A stretch of DNA of 64,000 nucleotides from an uncultured Candidatus Saccharibacteria bacterium (GCA_964549935.1 CAZJVT010000003.1:159501-223500); one strand, 5' to 3'; numbered from the stretch's first letter, positions 38,936-54,901 are shown. Notes: a model not told the origin generated them from the sequence alone. Translations and numbers: made by a program.

Positions 38936-38966
38936 GCCGTTTCCCCAGGTCCAAAGGAGACCTCCG

Positions 38967-39641
38967 ATGAGCACCGCCAACGCCTTCGTCGCCAGCTTCT
39001 TCGCCGGACTCCGTGCCGAGCCCCTCAAGGCTGCCGACAGGGAGTCCGAGAGCCGCACGCCGATCCTCGATCGCCTGCGCGGCGTGGTCGCCGTGGCCAT
39101 CGTCGCCGCGGTCCTGGCACCGACCGGTGCCCAGGCCCAGTCCCTCGGCATCAATACCCCGACGATCATGGGCATCCTCGGCGCCGCCGGCGGCGCATGG
39201 GGCGGCAGCCAGATCGGCCGCGGCGCCGGCAAGACCGCGGCGATCGCCGTCGGCACGCTGCTCGGTAGCGGCCTCGGATGGGAGGCTGGGAAGTACCTGG
39301 ACTCCCAGGGCGAGGCGGCGAAGGTCGCCCTTTCCCAGGCTCAGCTCGGTCAGCGCGTCGCCTGGCAGGACCAGGGCGCGTCCGGCTACTTCATGCCGAT
39401 CCGCGAAGGCGTCTCGATGCAGACCGGGCTGCAGTGCCGCGAGTACCAGACCGAGATCGTCGTGGGCGGGCAGCGCCAGGCCGGCTACGGAACCGCCTGC
39501 CTGCAGCCGGACGGCCACTGGCAGATCGTTTCCTCGGGCCAGGCTCGCCAGGGCGCCCAGTACAATCCGGCGCCGGCCTACGGACAGCCGATGCCTACCT
39601 ATGCCGGCCAGACCGGAATGAGCTACGGCTCGCGCTACTAG
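38967..39641 (+). CDS. Glycine-zipper membrane/surface protein (17-kDa-antigen / SlyB-like Gly-zipper) with Gln/Tyr-rich C-terminus
   Basis: GILGAAGGAWGGSQIGRGAGKTAAIAVGTLLGSGLGW; SD AAAGGAGA; N-terminal FVASFFAGLR motif. Confidence 0.6.
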   Translation: MSTANAFVASFFAGLRAEPLKAADRESESRTPILDRLRGVVAVAIVAAVLAPTGAQAQSLGINTPTIMGILGAAGGAWGGSQIGRGAGKTAAIAVGTLLGSGLGWEAGKYLDSQGEAAKVALSQAQLGQRVAWQDQGASGYFMPIREGVSMQTGLQCREYQTEIVVGGQRQAGYGTACLQPDGHWQIVSSGQARQGAQYNPAPAYGQPMPTYAGQTGMSYGSRY

Positions 39642-39651
39642 GTCCTCGAGA

Positions 39652-40360
39652 GATGACCGAAGCGGTACGCGATCGAACCTCCGCGAGCGACCGGGGAGCC
39701 GCAAGCGCCCTGGTCGCTTCCTTCTTCCGGCACCTGCGACCTGTTGACGATGCTCTCCCGCGGGTCCTGCGCCGGCTCCGCATCGCCGCTCTCGCGATCG
39801 GCCTGCTGTCGACCACGGCCTTCTCGACGTCATCCGTGGCGGATGCCGGGCCCGGCGACGGGCTCAGGCTCGCGACCGCGGCCGCCCTCCAGGCCGTCAC
39901 CGGCGAGCGGGACGGCATGACCTTCGACCTCGATGCCCTCGACGCAGCAAGCCGGGCGCATATGGCTCTCCTCGAAACGGTGTCGAGCGGCCGGACCGGT
40001 GCCGCAAGGGCCTGGACAGGCGACGACGGCCGGACCAGCGGCAAGACGCTGCTCGCGTCCGTGTCTCGTATCGGACAGGGCAAGAGCTTCGAGGACGGGA
40101 AGGACAGAAGCGGCGCGGAATGCGCGGCCTTGATATCGGCGGCCAGCTTCAGCGGCCGTGGCCCCATGGTCTCGGCGACACTCGTCTTTTGCAGGGCGTC
40201 GGGCGAAAGATGGGAGCTCGTGGATGCGGGCTCCAATGTCTCGACTCTTCAGGAGCTGCACAAGAAGCTCGCCGATGCTCTCGCGCGCCCGGACCTGCCG
40301 CGTGCGAGTGCCGAGGCGACCAGCCAGTCCGGCATGTCCGGCATCGGCAGCAGTCTCTGA
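39652..40360 (+). CDS. Secreted hypothetical protein, paralog of 37678..38451
   Basis: LVASFFRHLRP motif then LRIAALAIGLLS; C-terminal GAECAALISAASFSGRG ... RWELVDAG. Confidence 0.6.
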
Positions 40361-40402: not shown

Positions 40403-42127
40403 TCAGCCGGCGAGGCCACCGGCCAACTCGGCATCGACGACGGGCGCCGACCCGGTGCTCTCGATCATGGCGAGCGTTCTCCTGCCGGCCGGATCCATCG
40501 CTGCCAGCAGATCCTCGGCCAGGTTCCTTGCCGTCGAATTCCGGAGATGATCGACCAGCGTCCTGCCCGCCGCGACGACGGCGCGATCGATGTCAGAAAT
40601 CGACAGCCGGTCCGCGTGCGGGACCCGAAGCATGGCAATCCTGGCGGCCGCCTCGAGATCCTCGGAATGGCGCCAGGACCGCTCGACGTCCAGAAGCTCC
40701 CTCGGCGACAGCGCGTGCCAGCTCCGGCCCTTCGCCGTGAGCCTCATGCTCTCGTCGACGAGACGGAGCTCGGCGAAGCGTTCCGCGTGGTCGACCCAGG
40801 TGCTCGGCGAACCCAGCCTCATCGGCGGGCCCTGGAGCCGTTCGAGGCAGGGGCCTCTGGTCAGGGCGACGAAGACCGACTCCTGGATATCGTAGCCACG
40901 GAACCCAGGAGCGATCGCGAGCTGGCTCTGAACCTGCGATCTCGTTCCAGCGGGCGTGACCTGGCGCTTCAGCGGGATCTCTCCCGATGAGCCGAGGGCC
41001 GCTGGCCAGGGAACCCGAATGACGGCGACCTCCTGGACATGAGCCGCGATCGCGTCATAGGCGAGGCGATAGACGATCGAATGGCATTTGCGGCGGAGAT
41101 CGGCGCCGATTTCAGGAATGAAAGGTGCCGGGGCGATCGGATGGAGGGCCTCATGGACCTGGAGGCGATCCATGGGAAGGAATGCGCCTCCCCGAAGCTG
41201 CATCATGTCGCAAAGCCGGTCGAAGGTGTCTTCCGCGAGCTGGCTCGACATCGTCCTTGGATAGGAGATGAGGCCGTCCTGATACAGCTCCTGAAGGGAA
41301 GCCATGATCGACGGATGCGGTGCGAACGTCTCTCGCTTGATCGCGTCGATCGCCGAATCCAGCGCCGGCATGGGCGAGGGGTTTGGAGATCTCTCTCCTT
41401 CCAACGGAGGCATTGCGCTGCCGTCGGCGATCGCCAGCAGCCTGGTCGCCCTGTCGCGGCCGGCAACGGGAATGGTGGCGGAAAAGTCAGGACCTCCGGA
41501 GGCAGATCTCCTCCGTATCGTCACCTCGCCTATCGGGAGCCTTTCGTCATGGGCGGCACCAAGCAAGGCGGTAAGGACCCGGCCGACGGCAATGCCGCGT
41601 CCCGTGCTCCTGTGACGGCTGGAATAGGTCGCCCCGAGGAGGCGGTCGTGCGCGCTCCTGGCAAACCCAGGTATGGCTGCGCCAGGATTGAAGATCTCGG
41701 CGACCTCTAGGGCTCGCCTGATGGACCGCGTATCGATCGAGGAGGGCCGGACCCGGTAGATCGGGCCCCGGAACCCCGATTGAAGCAAGGACCTGGCGGC
41801 GTCCGCGGCGATGACCTCTCCCTCGTCGTCAGCGTCCGTCATCAGCAGGACGGCATGACGATTGACCGCGGCCGATACGATCGCATCGAGCCGATCCTGC
41901 TTGCGCGGCGACCTCGCATGCTCGATGCCCTCGGCGTCGATGCCGACGAGCGACAGGTCGCGGGGACTCGCCATGAGATGGCCCATGGTCGCGACGATCC
42001 ACGGCAGCGTTCCGCCCCAGAGTTCGTTCGCGATTGTCCGGAAGGCGTTTCTCATGGCCTGGAGCTGCCCGAACGACTCGATGACCACGAGCGGAGAGAC
42101 CGGTCCCCGCAGATCGTGAAGCCTCAC
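40403..42127 (-). CDS. Topoisomerase IA-like Toprim-domain protein (short, divergent)
   Basis: LVVIESFGQ ... ATMGH ... LMTDADDEGE (Toprim DxD) and active-site-like GLISYPRT (compare GxITYxRTD). Confidence 0.65.
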   Translation of the reverse strand: MRLHDLRGPVSPLVVIESFGQLQAMRNAFRTIANELWGGTLPWIVATMGHLMASPRDLSLVGIDAEGIEHARSPRKQDRLDAIVSAAVNRHAVLLMTDADDEGEVIAADAARSLLQSGFRGPIYRVRPSSIDTRSIRRALEVAEIFNPGAAIPGFARSAHDRLLGATYSSRHRSTGRGIAVGRVLTALLGAAHDERLPIGEVTIRRRSASGGPDFSATIPVAGRDRATRLLAIADGSAMPPLEGERSPNPSPMPALDSAIDAIKRETFAPHPSIMASLQELYQDGLISYPRTMSSQLAEDTFDRLCDMMQLRGGAFLPMDRLQVHEALHPIAPAPFIPEIGADLRRKCHSIVYRLAYDAIAAHVQEVAVIRVPWPAALGSSGEIPLKRQVTPAGTRSQVQSQLAIAPGFRGYDIQESVFVALTRGPCLERLQGPPMRLGSPSTWVDHAERFAELRLVDESMRLTAKGRSWHALSPRELLDVERSWRHSEDLEAAARIAMLRVPHADRLSISDIDRAVVAAGRTLVDHLRNSTARNLAEDLLAAMDPAGRRTLAMIESTGSAPVVDAELAGGLAG

Positions 42128-42134
42128 GCGCCCC

Positions 42135-45062
42135 TCATCGCGCCATGCTGAGCTGAAGCCCGCCGATCGCAGCGTCCAGGTCGTCGGTATTAGCCGGCAT
42201 GGGAAGGTGGCCGGGCGGGGCCTTGACGCCCGCCATGATCTGGCTCATGGGCGGGATCTGCGGGATGTCGGCAAGGCGTCCGGCTTGCTGCAGGCTCGCC
42301 TTCAGCTGCTCGTGGTTCTGCCTCAGCCGCGCGGGGAGCTGGGTGCAGCGGAGGTCGGCATCGATCCGGCTGACCGCGATCTTGAGCGCGCGCATCGAGC
42401 CGACGACGTAGCAGCGCTGCTTGCCCCGGCTGATGCCGGTGCGAAGGATCGTCCGCTGCAGCAGCGGGTAGTGGCAGGTGTGGAGGGGGATGATGCAGAC
42501 CGGATACTCGGCGCCCTGGCTCTTGTGCAGGCTGATGGCGTTGGCCTGCTCGAGCATCGAGAGGTCCTTCTTGCGATAGCGGACCAGGCCCGAGTCGCCG
42601 TAGTCGACCTCCAGGCCGTATGCGACTTCCTGCCCCATCCCGTTGGGGCTGGTGAAGACGCGGGTGATGAGCCCGACCTCGCCGTTGGCGACGATGCGAT
42701 CCTGCTCGATCTCGAAGCCGTCGAGCATCTCGTAGGCGACCTGCTCGTCCGCGGTGAGCCGCCGGCTCTGGTTCAGTTTTTCGCGGATGCCGGAAAGCAG
42801 CTTCTGGACTTCGCTGTGGTACTTCCAGTTCTCGACGTGGATGACCTTGTCCTGGCGGGAAAAGGTGAGACCTTCGCGCTTGTCGTCGCAGATGTAGGAA
42901 TGGACCGCGTTCAGGTTGATCGGATTGAGGATCTCCTTCAGCGAGATGTTCATCTGGTCGACGCCGATCTTGTTGGCGTAGCCCGGCGACAGGACCTGGA
43001 TGTCCTGCATGGGGTCGTATCCGAGCTGCGGCAGGTCGCGGCTGACCAGGTCGACGACGGCGTCGTGGATCTGCTCCGGATCGTTGATCTCGATGAAGTT
43101 GAACTCGAAGCCGGTTGAGTCCTCGATGCGGCCGATCTGGCGCCCGGGCACCTTGCCTTCGTCGATGGCCTCGACGGCGATCGGAATGCCGGAGCCCTTC
43201 TTCTGGCGATGGATCTTGGTGAGGTGGGCGATGGGAACCGTCCTCGAGTCGATCAGGTCGGCAAGGATCCGTCCTGCACCGACCGAGGGGATCTGCTTGT
43301 GGTCGCCGACGATGATGAGGCGCGTCCGCCGGAAATCGATGGCGCGCAGGGTCGAGAGGAACAGCTTGGCGGCATAGAGGCTCGCCTCGTCGATCACGAC
43401 GACGTCGACGTCCAGCGGATTGTTCTGGTTGTAGGTGAAGCCGCCGCTGCGGCTGAGGTCGTCGTCGGCGTCGCCGAGAGAGCTCGGAACCGCCGCGCTG
43501 CGGTCGCTGTCGGCCTGCGTATAGGGCGTCCAGGCAAGGCCGCGATGGGCAGTGAAGGCAGGAAGGCCGATGCTCTGCGTCATTCGCTTGGCTGCGTTCG
43601 CGGTCGGGGAGATCGGCAGGACCATGGTCCGGCCGGTCTCCGCCAGGGCCTTGATGACCAGGTTGAGGATGGTCGTCTTGCCTCGGCCGGGGCCGCCGGT
43701 GAGGACGGAGACGCGGCTGTTGAGGATGGTGCGCAGCGCCTCGGTCTGGCTCTCGTCCGGGATGAACCCGTCGGCGATCGCCTCGGTCAGGACCTTGCGG
43801 AGACCCTTCCCGATGGCATCGACGTACTGGGCTCGATCGTCGAGGGCGCCTTCGGCCTCGAACATGCCGGCGATCAGCCTCTGGGCGATCTCCTTCTCCA
43901 TCTCGAGCGACGCGTGGGTCCGGACGAGCTTCGGCTCGACCTCGCCCGAGTAGGCGAGGCGGCCGGACTTGACCAGGTCGATCATGCGGGTCTTAACGGA
44001 CTGGCCGTCGAGATCGAGGATCTTCGTGGCGTTCACGATCAGCTGGTGCGCCGGCAGGCCGCAATGCCCCTCCGTCTCCGCTTCGTACAGGGCATGCTTG
44101 ATGCCGGCGGTGATGCGACCCTCGTGGCTGGGATCGATCTTCATGCGCTTGCCGATGTCGTCGGCCTTGAGGAAGCCGATGCCCTGGATCTCGAAGGCGA
44201 GGGCCCAGGGATCGCTCTCGACCTGGTGGCGGCTCTTCGCGCCGTAGCGCTCGACGATCTTGTCGATGGTGCGGGCACCGAGGCCGAGGCCGGAAAGAAA
44301 CATCCGGACATTCTGGAGAGGGTTGTCGAGGTTCCTGGTGTAGCTCTCGACGATGGCGCGGGCTTGCCGCTCGCCGATGCCGGCGCGGACGAGCTCTACC
44401 GGATCCTTCAGGGCCTCGGGCAGCCGATCTCCGAAATAGGCGAAGAGCTTCTCCGCCGTTGCCGGACCGGTACCGGGGACGCCTCCGTTCGAGCCCCGTG
44501 ACAGCCACTTGACCACGCCTTCGACGCCGATCGGCGGAAGGATGCTGATGTCGGCCGCCTTCCAGCGACGGCCCCACTTGGGGTCGTCGTTCTCCTTGAG
44601 GTTGGCGGCCTGGTAACGATCGCCGGCGCCGACCGGCTGGTCGTCGCCCTTCTTCAGGAAGGCGGTGATGGTCTTGACCTGCCCGTCGCGGTTCCGGCCT
44701 TCGAACAGAAGCCAGCCGGAGTCGATGTTGCGCTTGATGACCCGGATGACCTCGCCATCCTCGAGATTGGACGGGGTTCGGGACCGGCGGCGCTCGGTCG
44801 ATTCCAGCCGCTGACCGTCCCCGGCTTCGCCGGCGCGGCCGGCGGCAGCGAGGCCGTCGTCGGCTCCGGCGCCAGAACCCTCCGTACCGTTGGCTGCAAG
44901 CCGGGCGAAACCACCGCGGCGAACCTGCGCCGCCGCCCCGGCCTGCTCGCCCTGGGCGGCGACCGTCTCGGAAACCTGGTCGGCGACGTCGTCGGTAACG
45001 TCGCGAGGTTCCTCGACCATCAACCTGCGGAAACCACGGCCTTCGCTGGCGGCGCTTGGCAT
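42135..45062 (-). CDS. RecD2-like SF1B DNA helicase (975 aa) with extended low-complexity N-terminus and SH3/OB-like N-domain
   Basis: Walker A GGPGRGKTT, DEAS box VVVIDEASLY, motif VI AISLHKSQGAEYP. Confidence 0.85.
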   Translation of the reverse strand: MPSAASEGRGFRRLMVEEPRDVTDDVADQVSETVAAQGEQAGAAAQVRRGGFARLAANGTEGSGAGADDGLAAAGRAGEAGDGQRLESTERRRSRTPSNLEDGEVIRVIKRNIDSGWLLFEGRNRDGQVKTITAFLKKGDDQPVGAGDRYQAANLKENDDPKWGRRWKAADISILPPIGVEGVVKWLSRGSNGGVPGTGPATAEKLFAYFGDRLPEALKDPVELVRAGIGERQARAIVESYTRNLDNPLQNVRMFLSGLGLGARTIDKIVERYGAKSRHQVESDPWALAFEIQGIGFLKADDIGKRMKIDPSHEGRITAGIKHALYEAETEGHCGLPAHQLIVNATKILDLDGQSVKTRMIDLVKSGRLAYSGEVEPKLVRTHASLEMEKEIAQRLIAGMFEAEGALDDRAQYVDAIGKGLRKVLTEAIADGFIPDESQTEALRTILNSRVSVLTGGPGRGKTTILNLVIKALAETGRTMVLPISPTANAAKRMTQSIGLPAFTAHRGLAWTPYTQADSDRSAAVPSSLGDADDDLSRSGGFTYNQNNPLDVDVVVIDEASLYAAKLFLSTLRAIDFRRTRLIIVGDHKQIPSVGAGRILADLIDSRTVPIAHLTKIHRQKKGSGIPIAVEAIDEGKVPGRQIGRIEDSTGFEFNFIEINDPEQIHDAVVDLVSRDLPQLGYDPMQDIQVLSPGYANKIGVDQMNISLKEILNPINLNAVHSYICDDKREGLTFSRQDKVIHVENWKYHSEVQKLLSGIREKLNQSRRLTADEQVAYEMLDGFEIEQDRIVANGEVGLITRVFTSPNGMGQEVAYGLEVDYGDSGLVRYRKKDLSMLEQANAISLHKSQGAEYPVCIIPLHTCHYPLLQRTILRTGISRGKQRCYVVGSMRALKIAVSRIDADLRCTQLPARLRQNHEQLKASLQQAGRLADIPQIPPMSQIMAGVKAPPGHLPMPANTDDLDAAIGGLQLSMAR

Positions 45063-45160
45063 CAGACCCTCCGGGGAGCGTCACGCCCCTATTCCGGGAT
45101 CGCGAACGCATGGTATCATAATGTGACTTCAAGATTATAGCGGACTGCGGAGAAAGCACG

Positions 45161-46054
45161 ATGTCGAAATTTCGGTTCCTGGCGACGCTGTCGCTCCTGG
45201 CGATCGCCATGCTCCCCGTGGCCGTCCGCGCCCAGCCCTCCCAGGGCGAAGCCATTCCCGCCGCCCTGGCTCCGCTTGCTCGGGACGGGGCCCGTCTTGC
45301 ACCGATCGGGAAGCTGGGAGGGCTCGATGGATGGCTCGCCAAGAAGGGCGACATGGTCCAGACGGTCTACCTGACACCGGACGGCAGGCACTACATCGCC
45401 GGCATCGGCTTCTCCCAGGATGGCCGAAACGCCACCGCCGAAAGCCTCGATGCCGCGATGAAGAAGGGGGATCTGGCCGCGCTCGGCATCGAGCCGAGGG
45501 CTACCTCCCAGGCGGCCCTGCCTCAGGTCCCGTCCCAGCAGTCGTCGGTGACGAAGACCGCAGGCGATGTGCGCATGCCCTCCCAGGCAGGCGACCAGAT
45601 CCTTGCCGCGATCGAGGCCGATGCCGCCCTGCCGCCCGAGAAGCGGGTGCTGACCTGGCTCAGCTTCGGCAGGGTCGGCGCGCCGGTCGTCTACATGGCG
45701 GCCGATCTCTCCTGTCCCTATTGCAAGCGCGCCTGGACCCAGCTCTCGCCCGAGGTGGATGCAGGGCGCATCGAGCTCCGCATCATCCCCGTCGCGCTGA
45801 TCTCGCCCGCCAGCAAGGGGCAGGCGATGGCTCTGTTCGACGCCGAGGATCCACGCAAGCTGTGGATCGACAACGTCAGGTCCAGCATCCCTCCGGCGCA
45901 GGTCGGCTCGGAAGCGGCGATGGCCGCGATCGAGGCGAACAACGCCTTCTTCGGTCAGTCCTTGAAGGGCACGCCGAGCTTCTGGCTGCGAAAGAGCGGA
46001 CGGCCACAGGCGGTGGCGGGCCTGCCGCACGACCTGGGCTCGATCCTGCCGTGA
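45161..46054 (+). CDS. DsbC/DsbG-like periplasmic thiol:disulfide isomerase (TrbB-like)
   Basis: Signal peptide; thioredoxin CPYC active site. Confidence 0.8.
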   Translation: MSKFRFLATLSLLAIAMLPVAVRAQPSQGEAIPAALAPLARDGARLAPIGKLGGLDGWLAKKGDMVQTVYLTPDGRHYIAGIGFSQDGRNATAESLDAAMKKGDLAALGIEPRATSQAALPQVPSQQSSVTKTAGDVRMPSQAGDQILAAIEADAALPPEKRVLTWLSFGRVGAPVVYMAADLSCPYCKRAWTQLSPEVDAGRIELRIIPVALISPASKGQAMALFDAEDPRKLWIDNVRSSIPPAQVGSEAAMAAIEANNAFFGQSLKGTPSFWLRKSGRPQAVAGLPHDLGSILP

Positions 46055-46434
46055 TGTGGATGAAGCCGACGACCGTGCGAAGGGCAATGGGACGACCGAC
46101 GCCGAATGTCCACCTCTCGATCGACTACGACGAAGACCCGAAGCGGCCGTCCTATCGGTCGGTGGTCGTCAGGGGTCCTGGCAGATTCGAAAGCCGCTAT
46201 GCCTCGAATGATCCGGTGACGGACTTCAGGAAGGGCCTGGTCCTCGCCCGGCGGAAGGCCCGGGTGGGCCGCTGCCGCCTGCTCGCCAGCTCGAGCCTCA
46301 CCCATTTCGTCTTCGACGTGCCGGGCTACCGGTTCGTCGGGCATCCCGTCTTCGGCGAGTTGCTCGCCAGGGACCCACGCGACGGACGGCGTCGCTTCAA
46401 GCCACGGAAAGGTCCATCCCATCATGAGCGCTGA
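46054..46434 (+). CDS. Small basic hypothetical protein (126 aa)
   Basis: ATG overlaps the upstream TGA (TGATG). Reading frame is the tail of ORF 45331..46434. Confidence 0.4.
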   Translation: MWMKPTTVRRAMGRPTPNVHLSIDYDEDPKRPSYRSVVVRGPGRFESRYASNDPVTDFRKGLVLARRKARVGRCRLLASSSLTHFVFDVPGYRFVGHPVFGELLARDPRDGRRRFKPRKGPSHHER

Positions 46435-47578
46435 GACGTCCCCGGCCGCGGCCCCGAAGCAGGCTTCGCTCTATTTCACCGATGGTCGGTCCGACAAGGA
46501 GTACCACGCGAAGCTCGAGACGTCGGGCGGCGGCTGGGTGGTGAACTTCGCCTATGGACGGCGAGGCGCGTCGCTGACCACCGGAACCAAGACGTCATCC
46601 CCCGTCTCCTACGAAAAGGCCCTCAAGGTCTTCGACGGCCTGGTGAAGGAAAAGACGGCGAAGGGCTATGTTCCCGATGAGGCCGGCCGGCCGTTCTCGG
46701 TCGGAGATGCGTCCGGACGGAAGTCCGATTTTCTGCCCCAGCTCTCGAATCCCATCGACATCGAGGGGCATGCCCTCGACGCGGTGATCGACGGCATGAT
46801 CGCATCCGACGAATGGTACGCCCAGCAGAAGCACGACGGCGTCCGGATGGCCATCGAGATCTTCGATGACGGCGCCCGCGGCATCAACCGCCGGGGGCTG
46901 TTCGTTGACCTCCCTCCGGCCGTCGCCGCGGCCTATGCGCTCCATCCGGTCGGCACGCTCGTCGACGGCGAGCTGGTCGGCGACGTCCATCATGCGTTCG
47001 ACGTCGTCAGGATCGGTGCCCGCTCCCTGATGGACCTGCCTTTCAGGAATCGCATCGTCGAGCTCGATCGGGCCCTGCGCCAGCATTCTGTCGACGACGC
47101 CGGCGCCGTCCGCTTCGTGCCCGCGATGTCCAGCTTCGCCGAGAAGCGCGAACTCCGCCGAAACGTCGAGGGGAGCAATGGCGAGGGTCTCGTCTTCAAG
47201 CGGGCCAGCGCGGTCTACCGACCCGGCCGGCCCGCGCGCGGCGGCGACTCGATCAAGCTCAAGTTCTGGGAGAGCGCGACCGTCCGCGTCGCCGGCGTCA
47301 ATGCCGGCAAGCGCTCCGTCTCCATGGAGATGCTCGACGGCAAGGGCTGGTCGACGGTCGGGAACGTAACTGTTCCGAGCAACCAGGAGATCCCGGCCGA
47401 AGGATCGTTGATCGAGGTCCGGTATCTCTACGCCATGCTGCCGAGCAAGGCGCTGTTCCAGCCCGTCCTCCTCGGATCTCGCGCGGACATGGAGCTCGCC
47501 GACTGCAGCGTCTCGCAGCTGAAGTTCAAGGCCGAGCCCGAGATCGCCTCCACATCCCTCGGTCCTTCCATGGGCTGA
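46424..47578 (+). CDS. ATP-dependent DNA ligase with N-terminal WGR domain
   Basis: WGR signature KEYHAKLETSGGGWVVNFAYGRRG. Ligase motif I QQKHDGVR (KxDG). OB-fold C-terminus. Confidence 0.85.
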   Translation: MSAETSPAAAPKQASLYFTDGRSDKEYHAKLETSGGGWVVNFAYGRRGASLTTGTKTSSPVSYEKALKVFDGLVKEKTAKGYVPDEAGRPFSVGDASGRKSDFLPQLSNPIDIEGHALDAVIDGMIASDEWYAQQKHDGVRMAIEIFDDGARGINRRGLFVDLPPAVAAAYALHPVGTLVDGELVGDVHHAFDVVRIGARSLMDLPFRNRIVELDRALRQHSVDDAGAVRFVPAMSSFAEKRELRRNVEGSNGEGLVFKRASAVYRPGRPARGGDSIKLKFWESATVRVAGVNAGKRSVSMEMLDGKGWSTVGNVTVPSNQEIPAEGSLIEVRYLYAMLPSKALFQPVLLGSRADMELADCSVSQLKFKAEPEIASTSLGPSMG

Positions 47579-47665
47579 TCGTTGACGCGGCTCGCCGGCA
47601 GGGATTTCATCTTCCTCCCTAAGTAGCAGAGGGCCGACGACGGCCCCAACCGGGAGGACGGAACC

Positions 47666-47860
47666 ATGGCGGCCAAGAAGACGACGGGCGGCAACAGGAA
47701 GACCCTGACGTCGAAGAACGATGTCGAGAAGAAGCCCATCGATACGGGTGGAAGTCCGAAGAAAGGGCGCCAGGTCGTGAAGACCAAGCCGAAGGCCGGG
47801 AGGAAGCCGATCGACGAACGGCCCAGGATGCCGCCCGGCAAGACGCTCCTGAAGGGCTAG
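47666..47860 (+). CDS. Small Lys-rich basic protein (64 aa), possible nucleic-acid-binding
   Basis: SD GGGAGG 8 nt before ATG. Confidence 0.45.
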   Translation: MAAKKTTGGNRKTLTSKNDVEKKPIDTGGSPKKGRQVVKTKPKAGRKPIDERPRMPPGKTLLKG

Positions 47861-48573
47861 GCTTTAAGCTGCCTGCGAAGCCTGACGCTGGGCATCGTCG
47901 CCTGCGTCAGCTTCCAGCCACTACCGCGGCGCTCGAAGAAGAGGGTGTCCTGACGCGATCCGGGTCCCTCGAATTCCGGGAACACCCGGGCATTGAACAA
48001 TTCCTCCGCCCAGCGCGGGGCCAGGCCGGAAGGCCAGTCGGGAATCGACTGAATGAGGCAGCAGCAGCCGGCCGCATCCTCGGTCACCCGCGCGTCATGG
48101 ATCTGGGTCAGCTTGCGGCCGACCGACTGGAAGATGCCCGTTTCCGCATCGTAGCTGAGGCCATGACCGTTGAGCGAGACCGTGATCGAGCCGTCGAAGG
48201 AGGCCGCCGACGTCTTCAGGAGCCCGGCGTCGACGAGGGCACGGAGCTTCACCACTTGCTGGGGACCTAGGTCGCCCAGGCCGGACATCTTGATCTTCAG
48301 GGGAAACCTGATCGGTTTTCCCATCGCGAGGGACAGCCGGATCTCCTTGAGCTCGCCGGCGGCTGCCAGCCGGACCGCATCGAGCTCGTCGCCCGCCACC
48401 GGCCGGCCTGCGGGAAGTCCTTCGAGGGTTCCGGATTTCTCATCTTCGGCGTTCGCGATCGCGCCGGCCCCCGACCTTGCGACGACCGGCGCGACCAGTG
48501 CGACCGATCCCACGATGCCGAGGGCGGAAAGCATGACCGATCTGCGGGTGAGCATCGTCATGTGGCGCCTCAT
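47857..48573 (-). CDS. Periplasmic hypothetical protein with Tat-like signal (MRRHMTMLTRRSVMLSALGIVGSVALVA); contains CCC motif
   Basis: ATGA overlap with recJ stop. Confidence 0.5.
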   Translation of the reverse strand: MRRHMTMLTRRSVMLSALGIVGSVALVAPVVARSGAGAIANAEDEKSGTLEGLPAGRPVAGDELDAVRLAAAGELKEIRLSLAMGKPIRFPLKIKMSGLGDLGPQQVVKLRALVDAGLLKTSAASFDGSITVSLNGHGLSYDAETGIFQSVGRKLTQIHDARVTEDAAGCCCLIQSIPDWPSGLAPRWAEELFNARVFPEFEGPGSRQDTLFFERRGSGWKLTQATMPSVRLRRQLKA

Positions 48574-50480
48574 GGTTCCGACGGCTCGTGCTTGGCGTAG
48601 GACTTCGCCTCGCCGGGTGCGCTTCGGCCCGGCTGCGAGCCGATCTCGAAGCTCGGCGAAGATTCGCGCGCGTCCTCGAGGAGCATCTCGACGTTGACGT
48701 AGCCGTTCCACTCGTTGACCCGGAGCTTGCCGGCGACGTCGAGACGACCGCCTTCGGCCGCGAGGAGAGCGTCTCCCAGGGGTGTGCCGACGGCTCCGAA
48801 GGCCATCGCCTTGGTCCTGGAGCGGCGGCCGTCGCCGCTGACCAGGTCGAGACGGATATGACGGTCCTTGAGCACCTTGACGGCGGAGACGGTGACGTTG
48901 GTGAGAGCGACCCTGGGTTCGGGGTTGCCCTGGCCGAAGGGCTCGAGGACCTTCATGTCCTCGAGATCGGCGACGTCGATCTCGCCGGGCGAGACCGCGA
49001 GGTCGATGGAGTAGGAGCGGGCATCTCCATGCTCGAAGACCGGGGCCGCGGCGTCCTCGAGATAGCGGGAGAGCTCGGGAAGCCGGTTACTTGCGATGCT
49101 CAGGCCGGCCGCCATCGGATGGCCGCCGCCATGGCTGAGGATGCCTTGCTGGCGAGCAGCGATCACGGCGCGGCCGAGATCGAAGCCGGTGACGCTCCGG
49201 GCGGATCCCTTCCATGAGGTGGCGGCGCCGTCGCTCGCACCGAGCACCAGTGCCGGACGGTCGTAGCGCTCCTTGAGGCGTGAGGCGACGACGCCGACGA
49301 TGCCCGGATGCCAGGACGGCTTGCCGACCACGAGGAAGGCGTCGCCGGCATGAGCCCACACCTCGTCGCCATTCGGTTCGCCGGCCGTACCGCCCGCCTC
49401 GATCGCCTGGACCGCCTCATCGAGGGTCTCGTCGCACAGGCGGCGACGCTCCTCGTTGATGCGATCGAGGGACTCGGCGATCGCCTTGGCCTCCGCCGGA
49501 TCGTCGGTGGTGAGAAGGCGAGATCCGAGGCCGCAGTCGTCGATGCGCCCGGACGCGTTGACCCGCGGCCCGAGAACGAAGCCCAGATGCCACGCCTTGA
49601 TCTCGGACTCTTCGACGTAGCGCAGAAGCGCGGCGATGCCGGCATTCTGGCGCCTTTCCATGACCTGCAGGCCGAGGGCGACGAGAGGTCGGTTGAAGCC
49701 GATCAGCGGCACGACATCGGCGACTGTGCCGAGCGCCACCAGGTCGAGGAGGGACGAGAGCCTCGGGCGATCGCGATTGGCGAAGACGCCGGCGTCGCCG
49801 AGGGCCTTGTCGAGCGCGACGCAGAACAGCCAGGCGATCCCGGCCGTACACATGTAGCCGTGGTCGCCGGCTTCCCTGGGCTGGTCCGGGCGGTTGGGAT
49901 TGACGATCGCTGTCGCGGGCGGCAGCGCGTGCTCGGCGACGTGGTGGTCGACCACGACGATATCGAGGCCGGCATCGGCTGCGGCGGCGAGGGGTGCATG
50001 GGCCGTGGTCCCGGAATCCAGGCAAAGGACCAGGTCGATGCCTTCGTTCTTGAGCTTGAGGAGGGCAGGGGCGTTCGGCCCGTAGCCTTCCTTCATGCGG
50101 TCGGGAATGTAGATGAGGGGTTCCGGCGCATCGGGGCATGCCATGCGCACGTAGCGCTGCACGATGGCGCTCGAGGTGGCTCCGTCGACGTCGTAGTCGC
50201 CGAAGAGGGCGATGCGCCCGCGCTTCGCGAGCAGGTCGGCAACGCGATCGACGGCCTTCCCCATGTCGATGAAGGAAAGCGGGTTCGGCATGCCTTGCAG
50301 GGTGTGCCTGAGGAAGCCCGGCCTGGCCTCGTCGTCGATGCCGCGCTGGCGCAGCACTTCGTCGAGGGTCCAGGCTCCGCGGCGTGCCGAGCCCGGAGCT
50401 TCCCGGAAACGCCATCCGAGGCCGCGGTAGGAGCGGTGGGGCTTCTTGTCGTCGGCTTGCGAAAGGGCGGCGGTGCTCAA
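48570..50480 (-). CDS. recJ: Single-stranded-DNA-specific 5'-3' exonuclease RecJ
   Basis: DHH motifs FGDYDVDGATS and VVDHH; DHHA1 GGGH. Start codon is TTG at the ORF edge. Confidence 0.9.
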   Translation of the reverse strand: MSTAALSQADDKKPHRSYRGLGWRFREAPGSARRGAWTLDEVLRQRGIDDEARPGFLRHTLQGMPNPLSFIDMGKAVDRVADLLAKRGRIALFGDYDVDGATSSAIVQRYVRMACPDAPEPLIYIPDRMKEGYGPNAPALLKLKNEGIDLVLCLDSGTTAHAPLAAAADAGLDIVVVDHHVAEHALPPATAIVNPNRPDQPREAGDHGYMCTAGIAWLFCVALDKALGDAGVFANRDRPRLSSLLDLVALGTVADVVPLIGFNRPLVALGLQVMERRQNAGIAALLRYVEESEIKAWHLGFVLGPRVNASGRIDDCGLGSRLLTTDDPAEAKAIAESLDRINEERRRLCDETLDEAVQAIEAGGTAGEPNGDEVWAHAGDAFLVVGKPSWHPGIVGVVASRLKERYDRPALVLGASDGAATSWKGSARSVTGFDLGRAVIAARQQGILSHGGGHPMAAGLSIASNRLPELSRYLEDAAAPVFEHGDARSYSIDLAVSPGEIDVADLEDMKVLEPFGQGNPEPRVALTNVTVSAVKVLKDRHIRLDLVSGDGRRSRTKAMAFGAVGTPLGDALLAAEGGRLDVAGKLRVNEWNGYVNVEMLLEDARESSPSFEIGSQPGRSAPGEAKSYAKHEPSEP

Positions 50481-50609
50481 CGGAAGATCCCGGTTCCGGT
50501 TCGTTCCGTTCGATGATACCGGCCGGGGGCGAAAGTTACAATCGTGTCGGCATCATGCTAAACATAACCCGCCGCGGGCGTGCTTGCCGGAACAGCCTGG
50601 ACCGGCAGC

Positions 50610-50870
50610 TCATTCTCTCGGCAGCTTGGGAAGCCTGCCTTCGGCCTCGGCGGGGACGGTCGATTGAACGACGACGTATCGGGCTCCGATGCGCCGCCTG
50701 GCGGTCGCGCGCCTGAGCAGCCGGGAGCGGACGATGCCGATGGCCCCGGTTTCGTCCGGAGACGACAGCCTGACGGTTCTATTCCATCCGCCTATGCGGC
50801 CATAGGTAAGGTCGATCGTATGGTGGCCGAACAGGTCCGGGGCAACCTCGACATTGTACCGGCGGGCCAT
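50610..50870 (-). CDS. Standalone WGR-domain protein (86 aa)
   Basis: HTIDLTYGRIGGWNRT WGR signature. Inner ATG verified at rc 50868-50870. Upstream part of ORF 50610..51434 looks non-coding. Confidence 0.6.
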   Translation of the reverse strand: MARRYNVEVAPDLFGHHTIDLTYGRIGGWNRTVRLSSPDETGAIGIVRSRLLRRATARRRIGARYVVVQSTVPAEAEGRLPKLPRE

Positions 50871-51029
50871 GTTTCGCTCGGTGTCGACGGCTTTCAGATC
50901 GATCGCGATGTCCAAGCCTGGCCTCCGTGAGAACAAACGGAGAATACCATGAGGATTCCAGGTCTCGCCAGAGTCCCCTCTATATGCAGGGTGCAAAAGA
51001 CCGTCTATATTGGTCCACCGCACAGAACG

Positions 51030-51521
51030 ATGGCGCATCCGGGGCGCCTCTTGATCTCGAACCAGACAAGATCCCTCGCAGAGCTCTTCGAGACCGTCCA
51101 CCGTCATATCTACGGCTGGGACGTCCGAGAGGGCTTGACCTGGTTCCAGTGGAGCTGCCTCCGGTACTTCGATCGCGTTGCGCCGGAGCAGCGCTCGATC
51201 GCGGGCTATCACAATGCCTTCCAGGTCGCGAGCTCCACGGCATCGCGAATGGTCAACGGACTGGCCAGCAAGGGCTATCTCAAGCTGACTCGCCCAAGCG
51301 GACCGAGGTCCTCCAAGGTCGAGCTGACCGCCCGCGGTCGTGACAAGCTGAAGAAAGATCCCCTGATCCCGCTGGGCAAGGAAATCGACAAGCTGCCGGA
51401 AACCCAGCGCAACGCGATACGCGCGGGGCTGCATACGCTGCTCAAGGCAGCGGTCCTGCTCGATGCGGGACTGGATATCGACGAGACCGCAATCGGGAAG
51501 AAGACCCGCGGCCGGAGATGA
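51030..51521 (+). CDS. MarR-family transcriptional regulator
   Basis: wHTH IAGYHNAFQVASSTASRMVNGLASKGYLKL. Confidence 0.75.
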   Translation: MAHPGRLLISNQTRSLAELFETVHRHIYGWDVREGLTWFQWSCLRYFDRVAPEQRSIAGYHNAFQVASSTASRMVNGLASKGYLKLTRPSGPRSSKVELTARGRDKLKKDPLIPLGKEIDKLPETQRNAIRAGLHTLLKAAVLLDAGLDIDETAIGKKTRGRR

Positions 51522-51530
51522 TCGTCCGCC

Positions 51531-51914
51531 TCAGGCGGCCAGGATCTCGTTGACCTTCTGGAGCAGCGCTTCGTTGGCGAAAGGCTTGTGGAGGACCGCG
51601 TCCGCTCCATACGCCTCCGCCAGCACCAGCGAGGAATGCGACGGCATGTGCGGCCGCCCCCCGGAGATCAGGAGGCAGCGCTGACCGGGCTTGTCCACCC
51701 TGATCCGCTTCATCATCTCGATCCCGTCAAGCTCGGGCATCCAGACGTCGGTGACGATCAGGTCGAAGCTCTGGGAAAGCGCCGCGGCGAGACCTTCCGC
51801 TCCGTTGGTTTCCAGCTGGACGTCGTAACCTGCCGAGGTCAGCTGGATGCGCAGCGACTCCCGGATGGCCGGCTTGTCGTCGACGACGAGGACCTTCTTG
51901 CGGCCCGCGCTCAT
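51531..51914 (-). CDS. Single-domain CheY-like response regulator receiver
   Basis: VLVVDDKPAIRESL ... DLIVTDVWMPELDG ... LISGG. ATGA-coupled to the kinase gene. It is the 3' end of the otherwise Arg-rich ORF 51531..54212. Confidence 0.85.
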   Translation of the reverse strand: MSAGRKKVLVVDDKPAIRESLRIQLTSAGYDVQLETNGAEGLAAALSQSFDLIVTDVWMPELDGIEMMKRIRVDKPGQRCLLISGGRPHMPSHSSLVLAEAYGADAVLHKPFANEALLQKVNEILAA

Positions 51915-54901
51915 GGAGAGGACTCCTCGGCCTCGCTGTAGAACGGCAGGTAGATACGGAAAATTGTACCGACGCCCAGTTGCGTGGCAACCTCGATTGC
52001 ACCCTTCATGGACTTCACGATCTCGTAGACGATCGGCAGGCCGAGGCCGGTCCCCAGGTGGCCCTTGGTCGTGAAGAACTGCTCGAAGATGCGCTTCCGG
52101 ATATCTTCGGCCATGCCCTCTCCGTTGTCCTGGATCGTCATCCGGACATAGCGGCCGGGTGGCGCCGGTGCCACGTCGGGAGCCGGCTGCGGTATCTCGG
52201 TCGCGGTCGTCACGTCCTCGAGCACGACTGAGATGATGCCGCCGGCCTTGGTGGCGTGGTTCGCATTGATCGTCAGGTTGGAAACGATCCTGTTGACCTC
52301 TTCCGGCGAGATCTTCACCCGCGCACCCGGGGGCAGGTCGTTGGTGTACCTGATCTCCCTGTCGATCATCGAGTTCATCTGTACGTCCATGAGGCCCCTG
52401 ACCTCGTTCGCGATGTCGAGGGGTATGCGGGTGGCCATGTCCGCCCTCGACGAGGCCAGCACGCGGTTGGCGACGACGCTCGCCTCTCCGGTGGCCCTGA
52501 GGACGAACCGGTTCCATGCGATGAGATCCGGATCTCCCTTGTCCTTGATCCGGTCGCGGATGAATTCCGAGAAGCTCTGGATCGCCTGGAGCTGGTTGTT
52601 GAATTCGTGCGCGATCATGCCGACCCTGTTTCCAAGGACGATGAAGCGCTCGATCTCCTGCCGCCTTGCGCTGTCCGCGACCTCGGCGGTGATGTCGGTG
52701 CTGGCACCTCGATAGCCCTTGAGCTTTCCCTCTGAAATGAAGGGCGTGCCGTTGGAGCGCACAATCCGCTTCTTGCCGTCGGGAAGAAGGATCGTATGGA
52801 CATGACCGCGAAACGGCTGTCCGTCGCGAAGGGCCTTGAACGTCTTTGCGATCTGTTCCCGGCCGGCACCGCTGGCGAACATCTTCAGGATCGATGCACC
52901 AACGAACAGCGAGGGATCGACGTCGAAGACGTCCCTGACCCTGTCGGCAACCTCGGAGATACGGAAATCGCGATCGATTTCCCAGTGGAAGTCGGTGGCG
53001 CAGGCGGTGATGTCGCGGAACTTGCTCTCGCTCCGCTGCAGCCGGAAATGCGCATAGACGCGTTCGGTGATGTCGATGATCGCCGTCATCGTCGCAGACT
53101 TGCCCAGCCAGTCGATCGGCAGGGACCGGTAGTCGACGCAGATCCTGCGGCCGCCGGCATTCTTCACCCAGCGCTCCTCGCCGGAAACTGGCGCGCTGCC
53201 TTCCCCCAGGTCGCCGAACAGGCTCGGCTCGCTGCCGTCGGGAGACGCGGGCTGCTCGAGGAGTCCGTCGGCGTCGCTGTAGCTCCACAGGTCGCGGAAG
53301 GCGCTGTTGCAGAAAAGGACCTTTCCCTCGAGGTGGATCACCGTCGCCTGAAGCGAGCCGTCGACGATGGTCTTCAGGCTCGCTTCGGATCGCCGGAGCT
53401 TGTCCTCCGCTTCCTTGTCCTTGGTGATGTCGGTGATGAGCGTCGCGATCCCGCCGGAGCGCGTACGCTGGTCGCGGAAGGACAGCAGGCGACCGTCCGG
53501 CATCGAGACCTCTACGGGGTCGTCGTTGCCTTCGCTGCGGCCGCGGCGCCGGCTTTCGCTCCACACCTTGGACTTGCCGGCGGCCTGCCGCCTGAGGGCG
53601 AGGGCGATCTCGGCCGTGCTCCGACCGACGAGGGACCTGCCCCGAAGGGACTCGAACATCTCCAGGTATCGCCCGTTGTGGGCGATGATCCGGTCGTCCG
53701 GCCCCGAGAGGACGAAGCCGTCGCCGAAGCTCTCGATCGCTTCCCGGAGAGCATCCTCTGTCCGTCTGACCGTGGTGACGTCGGTACAGATCGCGGCGCG
53801 CCCGCCCCCTCTGGTGCGCAGGCACCGGACCCCGATCACGCGGCCGTCGACCAGCTTGAGCTCGCGCGAGTAGTTCTGGTCCGAGCGCCAGATCTCGATC
53901 GAGCGCCTGAAGGCGGCGGCATACTCCTCGATATCGGTCGGGGCCTCGTAGACCGCCCCCATGACCTGCTTCAGCATGTCCTCGAAAGCGAGGCCGCGAA
54001 AATCCGTGGCTTGCCTTCCTGGAAAATGGAGGTCGGCATAGCGCGAATTGTAGAGGATGAGACGATCGTTCTCGTCCCACAGCGACAAGGCTTCGCCGAT
54101 ATGCTCGATCGAGTCCGAGAGCATGGACTCGGCGCGCTTCTGCGCGGTGATGTCGAGGCGGATCGTGGCGAGGCCGCCATCCGGCGTGCGACGTTCGTAG
54201 ACGGCCGCCCATTGGCCGTTCGGCCTGCGATAGACATGAGGCTCCGCCGGCGGATTGATCCGGCGCGCGAGGCGGCGGGCGATGAAGGTCTCGGTGTCCT
54301 CGTGAGACCCGCTTTGCGCCAGTCCCGCCCGTATCGAAGCCGCGATGAGGTCGGCCCCCTTGGCGCCGATCGGATTGCCGCCCGAGCGAAAGCTGTCGCT
54401 GTACTCCCTGAGGTAGGTCTGGTTCGCGAGGATCAGCCTGTCGCTCGGATCGAACAGGGTGAATCCGCCCGGGATGCTTTCGATGGCGCCAAGGATCCGT
54501 CGCTCCCGTGCAAAGCGTTCGGTCGTCTCCGACAGGCGGAGAAGCCGCAGGTCCTCGGTCACGATCTCCGACAGGTCGAAAGCCAGATCCCCGAGCCGGA
54601 CGGTCCTCCCGGAGAGGGAATAAGACTCGCCCGCGATCCGCCGCAGGTCATCCAGGCCGCCGTCCCTGTCCATGACGACGATCGATGGCATGGCGACGCC
54701 GGGTTCGATCGAGGAAAGCTCGGGGAAAAGGGAGGCGGCCCTGGGATTCGCGGCCTGGATACGCCATTCGTGATCGACGAGGATGAGGGCATCGTCGGCA
54801 AGCTCGAAGAGCAGCCGGCGCAGATCGCTTCGATCGCCGGACGTATCCGGCTTCTGCCAGGCACGCGGGAAGGCGCTGATATGCTTTCGATCGGCGGTCA
54901 C
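51911..54901 (-). CDS. Multi-PAS/PAC sensor histidine kinase (996 aa)
   Basis: HisKA H-box IAHEFNNQL; HATPase_c GTGLGLPIVYEIV; several PAS-like repeats. Confidence 0.9.
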   Translation of the reverse strand: MTADRKHISAFPRAWQKPDTSGDRSDLRRLLFELADDALILVDHEWRIQAANPRAASLFPELSSIEPGVAMPSIVVMDRDGGLDDLRRIAGESYSLSGRTVRLGDLAFDLSEIVTEDLRLLRLSETTERFARERRILGAIESIPGGFTLFDPSDRLILANQTYLREYSDSFRSGGNPIGAKGADLIAASIRAGLAQSGSHEDTETFIARRLARRINPPAEPHVYRRPNGQWAAVYERRTPDGGLATIRLDITAQKRAESMLSDSIEHIGEALSLWDENDRLILYNSRYADLHFPGRQATDFRGLAFEDMLKQVMGAVYEAPTDIEEYAAAFRRSIEIWRSDQNYSRELKLVDGRVIGVRCLRTRGGGRAAICTDVTTVRRTEDALREAIESFGDGFVLSGPDDRIIAHNGRYLEMFESLRGRSLVGRSTAEIALALRRQAAGKSKVWSESRRRGRSEGNDDPVEVSMPDGRLLSFRDQRTRSGGIATLITDITKDKEAEDKLRRSEASLKTIVDGSLQATVIHLEGKVLFCNSAFRDLWSYSDADGLLEQPASPDGSEPSLFGDLGEGSAPVSGEERWVKNAGGRRICVDYRSLPIDWLGKSATMTAIIDITERVYAHFRLQRSESKFRDITACATDFHWEIDRDFRISEVADRVRDVFDVDPSLFVGASILKMFASGAGREQIAKTFKALRDGQPFRGHVHTILLPDGKKRIVRSNGTPFISEGKLKGYRGASTDITAEVADSARRQEIERFIVLGNRVGMIAHEFNNQLQAIQSFSEFIRDRIKDKGDPDLIAWNRFVLRATGEASVVANRVLASSRADMATRIPLDIANEVRGLMDVQMNSMIDREIRYTNDLPPGARVKISPEEVNRIVSNLTINANHATKAGGIISVVLEDVTTATEIPQPAPDVAPAPPGRYVRMTIQDNGEGMAEDIRKRIFEQFFTTKGHLGTGLGLPIVYEIVKSMKGAIEVATQLGVGTIFRIYLPFYSEAEESSP

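Follow-up and report, generated by a model that had tools for sequence, protein, structure and literature searches.

We analyzed a 64,000-nucleotide stretch of DNA (hereafter, the window) deposited under an uncultured Candidatus Saccharibacteria bacterium (GCA_964549935.1, CAZJVT010000003.1:159501-223500), focusing on positions 40403-50870, an interval rich in genes for DNA enzymes within what appears to be a large conjugative element. An initial annotation, made from the sequence, had described this interval as a self-contained gene set for DNA end processing, listing a short Topo IA-like Toprim protein, a RecD2-like helicase, DsbC, a DNA ligase with a WGR domain, RecJ and a stand-alone WGR protein. 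Genes were defined here from codon-position GC together with gene calls on identical public contigs, the G+C content of the window being 62-71% throughout. All six genes were found where they had been placed, with catalytic motifs intact in all the enzymes, and the observation of a DNA-enzyme gene set is confirmed; four open reading frames (ORFs) had been left out of that list (orf126, orf64, orf234 and orf190). The interval and its edge are organized as follows, with lengths in amino acids (aa) and the G+C content at third codon positions abbreviated as GC3:

40403-42127, minus strand: compact type IA topoisomerase (mini-Topo IA), 574 aa, with Toprim and Topoisom_bac domains
42135-45062, minus strand: RecD2-like helicase of superfamily 1B (SF1B), 975 aa, matching TIGR01448, HHH_RecD2, AAA_30 and UvrD_C_2
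45063-45160, no strand: divergent intergenic region of 98 bp between the helicase and DsbG operons
45161-46054, plus strand: DsbG/TrbB-like periplasmic thiol:disulfide isomerase, 297 aa (NF008657)
46054-46434, plus strand: orf126, no assigned function, GC3 0.80
46424-47578, plus strand: WGR domain plus minimal ATP-dependent DNA ligase (WGR-ligase), 384 aa (WGR, DNA_ligase_A_M)
47666-47860, plus strand: orf64, Lys/Arg-rich basic protein, 64 aa, GC3 0.89, called as a gene in the Logan assembly
47857-48561, minus strand: orf234, secreted, with a twin-arginine-like signal (TRRSVML), directly downstream of the RecJ gene
48570-50480, minus strand: RecJ 5'-3' single-stranded DNA (ssDNA) exonuclease, 636 aa (TIGR00644; DHH, DHHA1, RecJ_OB)
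50610-50915, minus strand: stand-alone WGR protein (WGR101), 101 aa, with a borderline Pfam WGR match
50949-51521, plus strand: orf190, a further ORF of the stretch

These genes fall into at least four transcription units, namely helicase-topoisomerase, with 7 nucleotides between the helicase stop and the topoisomerase start; DsbG-orf126-ligase, in which orf126 overlaps both the DsbG stop and the ligase start and is therefore apparently translationally coupled to the two; WGR101 alone; and recJ-orf234. Terminator-like and promoter-like sites precede the last of these units, and the promoter-like site upstream of recJ (50541-50513) was the only element above chance in repeat, promoter and terminator scans of the interval. 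The 98-bp divergent region (45063-45160) is more AT-rich than its surroundings and presumably carries the promoters of the helicase and DsbG operons; no sigma-70 consensus match was found in it. The orf64 gene converges on orf234, itself co-transcribed with recJ, with a 4-nucleotide overlap, and the Lys/Arg-rich composition of its product, the only feature pointing that way, makes a DNA-binding role possible. Searches of Pfam, NCBIfam and PHROG gave no match for orf126, and library scans assigned no family to orf234. Both the DsbG-like protein and orf234 carry export signals and are periplasmic products rather than DNA enzymes, so the interval is not purely a DNA-enzyme set.

The topoisomerase matches Pfam Toprim above the cut-off (27.7 bits against 23.1) and Topoisom_bac slightly below it (32.7 against 35.1), and its best NCBIfam Topo IA match reaches 35.5 bits, with cut-offs of 456-1265 for topA, topB and rgy. 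As it falls short of Topoisom_bac and of every NCBIfam Topo IA threshold, it is assigned to a divergent subfamily distinct from TopA, TopB and reverse gyrase. The acidic cluster of the Toprim domain is present (VIES with E17, and TDADDEGE at 97-104), as is the GLISYPRT block, where Y289 and R291 lie within SYPRT. In a profile search of PDB sequences, residues 76-436 align to reverse gyrase over its topoisomerase domain (E 1e-13); SYPRT is matched with the catalytic TYHRTD of the T. maritima enzyme, Y289 lying opposite the residue changed to Phe in the Y851F variant, and HEALHP is matched with HEAIRP. Y289 is thereby aligned with the catalytic Tyr of both reverse gyrase and Topo I. Across 35 aligned family members, D98, D100, E102, R157, D161, R162, R183, Q279, Y282, Y289, R291, G439, P441 and H447 are invariant, and E17 and H325 almost so. 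The earlier statement that this protein retains the Toprim DxD motif and a Tyr-containing GLISYPRT block is borne out, and the alignment, proposed at that time as a check on the catalytic Tyr, revealed no loss of this residue.

An AlphaFold2 (AF2) model of mini-Topo IA (pLDDT 83.9, pTM 0.86) was compared with known structures using Foldseek, the best matches being the 67K fragment of E. coli Topo I, reverse gyrase and Topo III (E 1e-17 to 1e-13), with a coverage of ~600 columns and a TM of ~0.55, i.e., the full Topo IA core. According to this model, the protein is a complete but compact type IA core with the four-domain toroidal fold; it carries a helical C-terminal region in place of the Zn-ribbon C-terminal domain. 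A word-indexed search of 5.8 billion proteins retrieved a single relative, at 55% identity, and an exhaustive profile search retrieved 244 cluster representatives at E<1e-10, mostly of 500-650 aa; as judged from these comparisons, mini-Topo IA forms its own, uncharacterised family. A scan of species-representative contigs using a generic Toprim motif returned only canonical TopA/TopB genes (620-916 aa), and therefore nothing was learned from it about the family. Our literature searches found no paper on mini-Topo IA or on a RecD2-topoisomerase pair in elements with a type IVB secretion system (T4BSS).

The helicase encoded immediately upstream matches TIGR01448 with 488.9 bits, the cut-off being 500, in an end-to-end alignment over residues 103-911. 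Pfam HHH_RecD2, AAA_30 and UvrD_C_2 were detected, with no OB_YrrC or SH3_13 among the reported domains. Helicase motifs I, II, III and V are intact (GGPGRGKT at 456, VIDEAS at 556, GDHKQ at 586 and HKSQGAE at 846, respectively), and the protein is extended at its N terminus by ~100 aa rich in Ala, Gly and Glu and at its C terminus by a tail of ~65 aa. TIGR02768 also matches this helicase (4e-11). Its nearest full-length relatives are only ~32% identical, and a scan of 185,579 species-representative genomes yielded no relatives. The divergently transcribed neighbor scores 129.1 with NF008657 (cut-off 124) and displays the signal peptide MSKFRFLATLSLLAIAMLPVAVRAQ and a CPYC motif at residue 185. 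The disulfide isomerase of the initial annotation thus stands, and its label is changed from DsbC to DsbG-like on account of the family match, the signal peptide and the CPYC motif.

Synteny was compared in a sister element (L003/L004), in three distant family members (L081, L083 and L093), in pND6-2 (L087, L094, L095 and L098), in nine other plasmids carrying mini-Topo (L088-L091, L096, L097 and L099-L101), and in metagenome loci of another subfamily, retrieved with a narrower alignment covering the LGRPSTQ subfamily only, four of which had enough flanking sequence (L102, L104, L108 and L109). Identical copies of the window proteins are confined to a few Logan and NCBI contigs, none longer than 224 kb, and megablast of the interval against PLSDB gave no match. 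The adjacency of helicase and topoisomerase genes, in this order, was found in four other elements, namely the sister and the three distant members. In the sister element, the helicase is 91% and the topoisomerase 55% identical to the window proteins, and the distal genes of a neighboring pilus operon are kept together with a dUTPase gene. With the adjoining genes at 66-82% identity, the topoisomerase is the fastest-evolving gene of the helicase-topoisomerase block; between the two topoisomerases the Toprim region is conserved and the middle domains have diverged. In L081, L083 and L093, RecD2-like helicases of 842-946 aa are encoded directly upstream of topoisomerases that are 27-32% identical to the window protein, the helicases of L081 and L083 being 28-34% identical to that of the window; in L093 the helicase and topoisomerase genes overlap, and the helicase was recognized solely through its Pfam domains. 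As in the window, L081 and L083 have a DsbG-like gene transcribed divergently from the helicase gene, and in both a small ORF with no counterpart in the window lies between the helicase and topoisomerase genes. The surroundings of these three loci include genes for PilO/PilS/PilM/PilV, IcmW, and TraW/TraX-like or LPD7 proteins.

Beyond these elements, mini-Topo is found inside the transfer region of the Pseudomonas plasmid pND6-2, typed as class I mating-pair formation (MPF_I), near genes for an SLT protein, an IcmO type IV coupling protein (T4CP) and DsbG, the DsbG homologue lying beside the T4CP gene. The 'toprim domain-containing protein' annotated in transfer regions of Xanthomonas, Yersinia, Bordetella and Burkholderia plasmids is also mini-Topo, and the family is likewise present in transfer regions of replicons of Acetobacter, Methylorubrum, Rhizobium and Bosea, the carriers measuring between 115 kb and 1.3 Mb. 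A recurrent gene order of gamma- and betaproteobacterial MPF_I plasmids is mini-Topo IA, an overlapping small ORF, a canonical Topo III of ~820 aa and an ArdC-like zincin; the arrangement with Topo III is seen at L096 3032-10142, L097 9013-15782, L099 5989-12452 and L108 9230-16571.

Judging from its gene content, the interval lies in the backbone of a large MPF_I conjugative element (IncI/Dot-Icm-type T4BSS with a type IVb pilus). Three further features of the window are relevant here:

26039-40360, plus strand: type IVb (R64-like thin) pilus operon, with secretin, T2SSE ATPase, T2SSF, pilin-like proteins, dUTPase and a 767-aa protein
58579-59415, minus strand: DnaQ/RNase T-like 3'-5' exonuclease, 278 aa (Pfam RNase_T 1e-34; DTE at 22)
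63368-63877, plus strand: SLT lytic transglycosylase, first gene of the coupling-complex operon

The 14-kb pilus operon ends convergently beside the topoisomerase gene. Past the right end of the window, the SLT gene is followed by a DotM/TrbA-like gene (136 bits with DotM_C), a 201-aa ORF and a 912-aa TrbC/DotL-like T4CP (NF041447 TrbC_conju, E 1.7e-100, 337 bits, under the equivalog cut-off of 800). The MPF_I components represented are a DotL/TrbC-type T4CP, DotM, secretin, T2SSE, T2SSF and Peptidase_A24. The element is probably an alphaproteobacterial plasmid, since the best matches of RecJ, WGR101 and an RHE_PE00001-family protein point to such a host. This last protein is encoded to the left of the pilus operon, along with ParA, a tyrosine recombinase, SRAP, a UmuD-like protein and two HipBA modules; the HipA/HipB-type toxin-antitoxin modules lie in tandem by the SRAP (SOS-response-associated peptidase) and UmuD/LexA-like S24 peptidase genes (17644-21289, minus strand; 15553-16266, plus strand; 21480-22118, minus strand). 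The dUTPase gene (34742-35212, plus strand) is an odd partner for pilus genes and occupies the same place in the sister element (L003, 79% identical). The dUTPase and the many ORFans had prompted us to consider a prophage; we rejected this reading, as PHROG matched a secretin and a secretion ATPase and neither a capsid nor a terminase turned up.

To the right of the interval, an operon at 57222-62644 (minus strand) encodes LPD7, prepilin peptidase (A24), a Gly-rich protein, the DnaQ/RNase T-like exonuclease and a 442-aa pentapeptide-repeat protein, possibly a DNA mimic. In the megaplasmid of M. extorquens AM1 (L089), an A24 peptidase gene directly precedes the RecD2-like helicase gene. The window also encodes a PAS-rich histidine kinase and a single-domain response regulator (51531-54901, minus strand), as well as another response regulator, an orphan, whose gene lies upstream of the pilus operon (25116-25901, minus strand). 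On Bosea pANAM02 (L091), the T4CP gene has response-regulator and kinase genes beside it, a hint that transfer genes are under two-component control.

Among the remaining enzymes of the interval, RecJ scores 466.4 bits with TIGR00644 (cut-off 396.9) and displays DHH, DHHA1 and RecJ_OB domains, with DHH at 178 and GGGH at 451. The gene of the DnaQ-like exonuclease lies outside 40403-50870, but belongs to the same DNA-enzyme repertoire. Both a RecJ (38-43% identical) and a RecD2-like helicase are encoded within 20-35 kb of mini-Topo in M. extorquens AM1, R. leguminosarum pRlX5 and Bosea pANAM02; in a fourth locus, L092, RecJ lies ~8 kb from mini-Topo and no RecD2-like helicase was seen. The latter locus (769-11779) holds RecJ, GyrA/ParC-like, GyrB-like, a 167-aa ORF and mini-Topo IA within 11 kb, which would make it a locus resembling a mobile element that encodes a type IIA topoisomerase of its own. 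On the M. extorquens AM1 megaplasmid (L089 4550-8929, minus strand), a 1459-aa protein with an N-terminal Prim-Pol domain, unannotated in the PLSDB table, is encoded downstream of RecJ.

The WGR-ligase exceeds the Pfam cut-offs for both of its domains (WGR, 30.4 against 22; DNA_ligase_A_M, 36.9 against 26.2) and displays the ligase motifs KHDGVR at 136 (K136), DGELV at 181 and EGLVFK at 254. We retrieved 968 homologues with the same architecture at E<=1e-3, an architecture previously noted as an uncharacterised group (PMC7470946). Two homologues, at L085 1077-11071 and L086 6819-16355, are 47-48% identical and share a conserved neighborhood, in the order 260-aa and 104-aa ORFs, ligase, ~140-aa ORF, Mg-chelatase-like, DUF2997, and then a HATPase_c protein of ~530 aa, an AAA ATPase of ~500 aa and a protein of ~320 aa; this uncharacterised set is unrelated to the context in the window. 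WGR101 matches Pfam WGR with 21.8 bits against a cut-off of 22, a borderline score, and starts at a TTG located 45 nucleotides upstream of position 50870, where the initial annotation had ended the interval. Its tblastn matches correspond to a 'WGR domain-containing protein' on 65 plasmids, mostly alphaproteobacterial. An extended WGR ORF of 274 aa was rejected, as the GC3 of 0.58 in the upstream extension makes it unlikely to be coding. No paralogy was detectable between the WGR domains of the ligase and WGR101, so the presence of two WGR proteins, singled out earlier as unusual, carries little weight. Neither gene was found near mini-Topo elsewhere among the loci compared, and by this distribution the ligase and WGR101 appear to be independently mobile accessory genes, belonging to other mobile-element families and separately acquired.

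Clustering beyond chance is accordingly seen, at the level of gene order, for part of the set only (helicase-topoisomerase), the ligase and WGR genes having no recurrence. The description of the set as self-contained does not hold: only the block formed by the DsbG-like gene, the divergent RecD2-like helicase gene and mini-Topo is syntenic, and RecJ is more loosely linked. The question of whether homologs are syntenic or scattered, which had been posed as decisive, receives a divided answer, with synteny for helicase and topoisomerase (plus DsbG and, more loosely, RecJ) and scatter for the ligase and WGR genes.

With the integration of these findings, we consider the interval to be a mosaic piece of the element backbone whose likeliest function, with a probability of about 0.6, is the handling of the element's own DNA during transfer or establishment, a role that we infer from family knowledge and genomic context. 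It is best read as three layers: a backbone block of DsbG, helicase and mini-Topo; a loosely linked RecJ; and the accessory WGR-ligase, WGR101 and ORFs of no known family. The isomerase would serve the assembly of the envelope machinery; the RecD2-type helicase would unwind element DNA in the 5'-3' direction, like the RecD-like domains of TraI (F) and TraA (Ti); and the topoisomerase would relax, unlink or decatenate the single strands thus exposed, as has been suggested for Topo III homologues encoded by plasmids, RP4 TraE among them. RecJ and the DnaQ-like exonuclease would trim ssDNA ends or flaps, and the ligase would seal them, with the WGR-ligase and small WGR protein possibly sealing or binding nicks; these enzymes may act in the donor or in the recipient. 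TraE itself was suggested to act on replication intermediates, vegetative or conjugative, and resolve them (Li et al., 1997; cited in PMC9791958). Establishment or repair of transferred ssDNA, one of the functions suggested initially, survives as conjugative DNA handling, the best-supported reading, once the notion of a self-contained set is dropped. Several observations weigh against it. The helicase-topoisomerase adjacency is absent in pND6-2 and in the Xanthomonas, Yersinia, Bordetella and Burkholderia plasmids, as well as in the metagenome loci L102, L104, L108 and L109, and thus appears, in the loci aligned, limited to the subclade nearest the window mini-Topo; the ligase and WGR genes are unlinked to the rest of the set in other loci; many carriers also encode a canonical Topo III beside mini-Topo, with which a plain Topo III-like role would be redundant; and neither an origin of transfer (oriT), a relaxase nor a leading region was located in the ~84 kb seen of an element of at least 132 kb.

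The main rival is vegetative maintenance of a large low-copy replicon, in which helicase and Topo IA, in the manner of RecQ-Topo III, would decatenate the replicon or resolve intermediates of replication and recombination, RecJ would act in gap or end repair and the ligase would seal nicks. ParA and RHE_PE00001-family (plasmid replication-region) genes are present in the same window, the carriers are large (115 kb to 1.3 Mb), L092 couples mini-Topo with RecJ, GyrA and GyrB, and this function is among those proposed for TraE; we nevertheless regard it as unlikely, as in nearly every locus mini-Topo lies in or next to transfer operons (T4CP, SLT, TraW-like, IcmW, pil) and not beside rep or par genes. 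A defence system, or an anti-defence and establishment cassette acting early in the recipient, where the ligase would reseal restriction cuts with the aid of a pentapeptide mimic and exonucleases, seems very unlikely. Although RecD-like helicase, RecJ and ligase all have PHROG families, consistent with the use of such enzymes by mobile elements, pentapeptide-repeat, LPD7 and DnaQ-like genes lie 7-12 kb away, ArdC-like genes accompany mini-Topo on other plasmids, and the Bosea RecD2-like gene is found among methyltransferase, DEAD-helicase and GIY-YIG genes, PADLOC-DB 2.0 returned only generic RecD-family and WGR/ligase-domain matches, none for the topoisomerase, DsbG, RecJ or WGR101, and no system. 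Moreover, the genes occupy both strands in at least four transcription units with two periplasmic products, and their conserved partners are transfer genes; the anti-phage or anti-plasmid module offered as an option by the initial annotation is thus not upheld. That unrelated cargo and housekeeping genes came together by chance we hold to be highly improbable for the interval as a whole: the unrelated neighborhoods of the ligase and WGR genes elsewhere and the interspersed two-component system and periplasmic proteins would fit this explanation, but helicase and topoisomerase genes are again found side by side at 25-34% identity, in two cases together with a divergently oriented DsbG-like gene, and RecJ co-occurs with mini-Topo in four further elements. 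This recurrent synteny refutes chance for the core, leaving it tenable only for the ligase and WGR part.

A more radical proposal concerns the relaxase. The earlier statement that the window holds no relaxase or coupling protein is accurate within its limits, with SLT at the right edge and the T4CP ~2 kb past the right end. No Pfam or NCBIfam relaxase match was obtained on any protein of the window element that was scanned; regular-expression matches to MOBP/MOBQ histidine motifs were discarded as unconvincing, most lying in ORFs that run across called genes in a different frame. Among the replicons that encode a full-length mini-Topo, the 10 that we inspected all lack a MOB-suite relaxase type, yet are equipped with genes for a T4BSS and a T4CP. 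Conjugation has been demonstrated experimentally for pND6-2 and its relative pS04 90 (PMC6133989; PMC11826091), and pPAD8, another relative, is likewise experimentally conjugative. On pND6-2, no relaxase is annotated and Pfam found none in its 10 largest hypothetical proteins, and our literature search found no paper on the relaxase of pND6-2-type plasmids. No mini-Topo matches came from enterobacterial (IncI-type) plasmids; enterobacterial IncI plasmids use the NikB relaxase. Cleavage by Topo IA leaves a 5'-phosphotyrosyl protein-DNA link, of the same polarity as that of relaxases. These data, along with the coexistence of mini-Topo and canonical Topo III, which argues for a role not redundant with the latter, and the parallel between the helicase-then-nickase gene pair and the relaxase-RecD-like fusions of TraI/TraA (TIGR02768, 4e-11), would favor mini-Topo IA, with the RecD2-like helicase where present, as a non-HUH relaxase equivalent that cleaves ssDNA at oriT, forms a 5'-phosphotyrosyl link and reseals in the recipient. 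We find this improbable: conservation of the entire toroidal Topo IA core points to strand passage, a function that a relaxase does not need; a conventional relaxase that escaped recognition among the many hypothetical proteins is a simpler explanation; no oriT is known for mini-Topo elements, and the MOB-suite absence is negative evidence only. By extension, an MPF_I subgroup devoid of HUH relaxases, where mini-Topo would nick, attach and reclose the transfer strand as a new relaxase class of Toprim/Topo IA fold, is a speculative prospect with the odds well against it. A milder version, by analogy with reverse gyrase and RecQ-Topo III, in which helicase and core-only topoisomerase would form an obligate two-protein machine for conjugative ssDNA, is a similarly long shot.

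Conjugative elements carry accessory helicases, topoisomerases, ligases and DsbC-like proteins, and the cluster as a whole is therefore ordinary; within our preferred reading of conjugative DNA handling, the under-studied part that merits follow-up is the compact Topo IA with its RecD2-like partner. The mini-Topo family is widespread in Dot/Icm-type conjugative plasmids, including carbapenemase-carrying pND6-2-type plasmids of Pseudomonas. Its role, once defined, could explain the DNA processing of 'relaxase-less' yet conjugative plasmids, and would add a second case in nature of a helicase and a Topo IA working as dedicated partners.

Among known systems, the plasmid and integrative-element Topo III enzymes represented by RP4 TraE/TopB resemble mini-Topo IA in being type IA enzymes encoded in or beside a transfer region, with the same catalytic residues and a YPR-type motif. 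The active-site motif of Topo III is TYPRSD, compared to SYPRT here. In contrast to TraE/TopB, mini-Topo IA has 574 aa, lacks the Zn-ribbon and the Topo III C-terminal domain, belongs to its own family and often shares a plasmid with a canonical Topo III. Closer counterparts are the MPF_I plasmids of the pND6-2 type and those of Xanthomonas, Yersinia and Bordetella, which encode the same mini-Topo family (~25-30% identity over >=80% of the length) and share the type of backbone, with Dot/Icm T4BSS, type IVb pilus, SLT, IcmO/TrbC T4CP and DsbG; they differ in having a small ORF, Topo III and ArdC instead of an adjacent RecD2-like helicase, RecJ and WGR-ligase. The trbA-trbB-trbC and pil regions of R64 (IncI1) likewise correspond to the TrbC/DotL-like T4CP, the DotM/TrbA-like protein, the TrbB/DsbG-like isomerase, and the thin pilus with prepilin peptidase of the element, in a different gene order; R64 has the NikAB relaxase and Sog primase and is not known to carry mini-Topo or the RecD2 pair. 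The ligase shares its architecture and size with the NT-OB_2-WGR ligases (Williamson and Leiros, 2020), being ~45-48% identical to many of them, although those adjoin Mg-chelatase-like, DUF2997, HATPase_c and AAA genes.

Regarding the helicase-topoisomerase pair itself, TraI of F and TraA of Ti also couple a RecD-like SF1B 5'-3' helicase to an enzyme that cleaves ssDNA with a 5'-phosphotyrosyl link; in our case the two are separate polypeptides, and the putative cleaving enzyme has a predicted Toprim/Topo IA fold instead of an HUH fold. RecQ-Topo III and reverse gyrase are also pairings of a helicase with a type IA topoisomerase, and the best PDB and NCBIfam matches of mini-Topo are the topoisomerase domains of reverse gyrase, with a similar core-only build. 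The fused N-terminal helicase-like module of superfamily 2 (SF2) that defines reverse gyrase is missing, similarity being confined to the topoisomerase core; the window pair differs from both systems in that its helicase is of the SF1B (RecD2) type rather than SF2, is unfused, and is accompanied by a topoisomerase with no latch or Zn-finger element.

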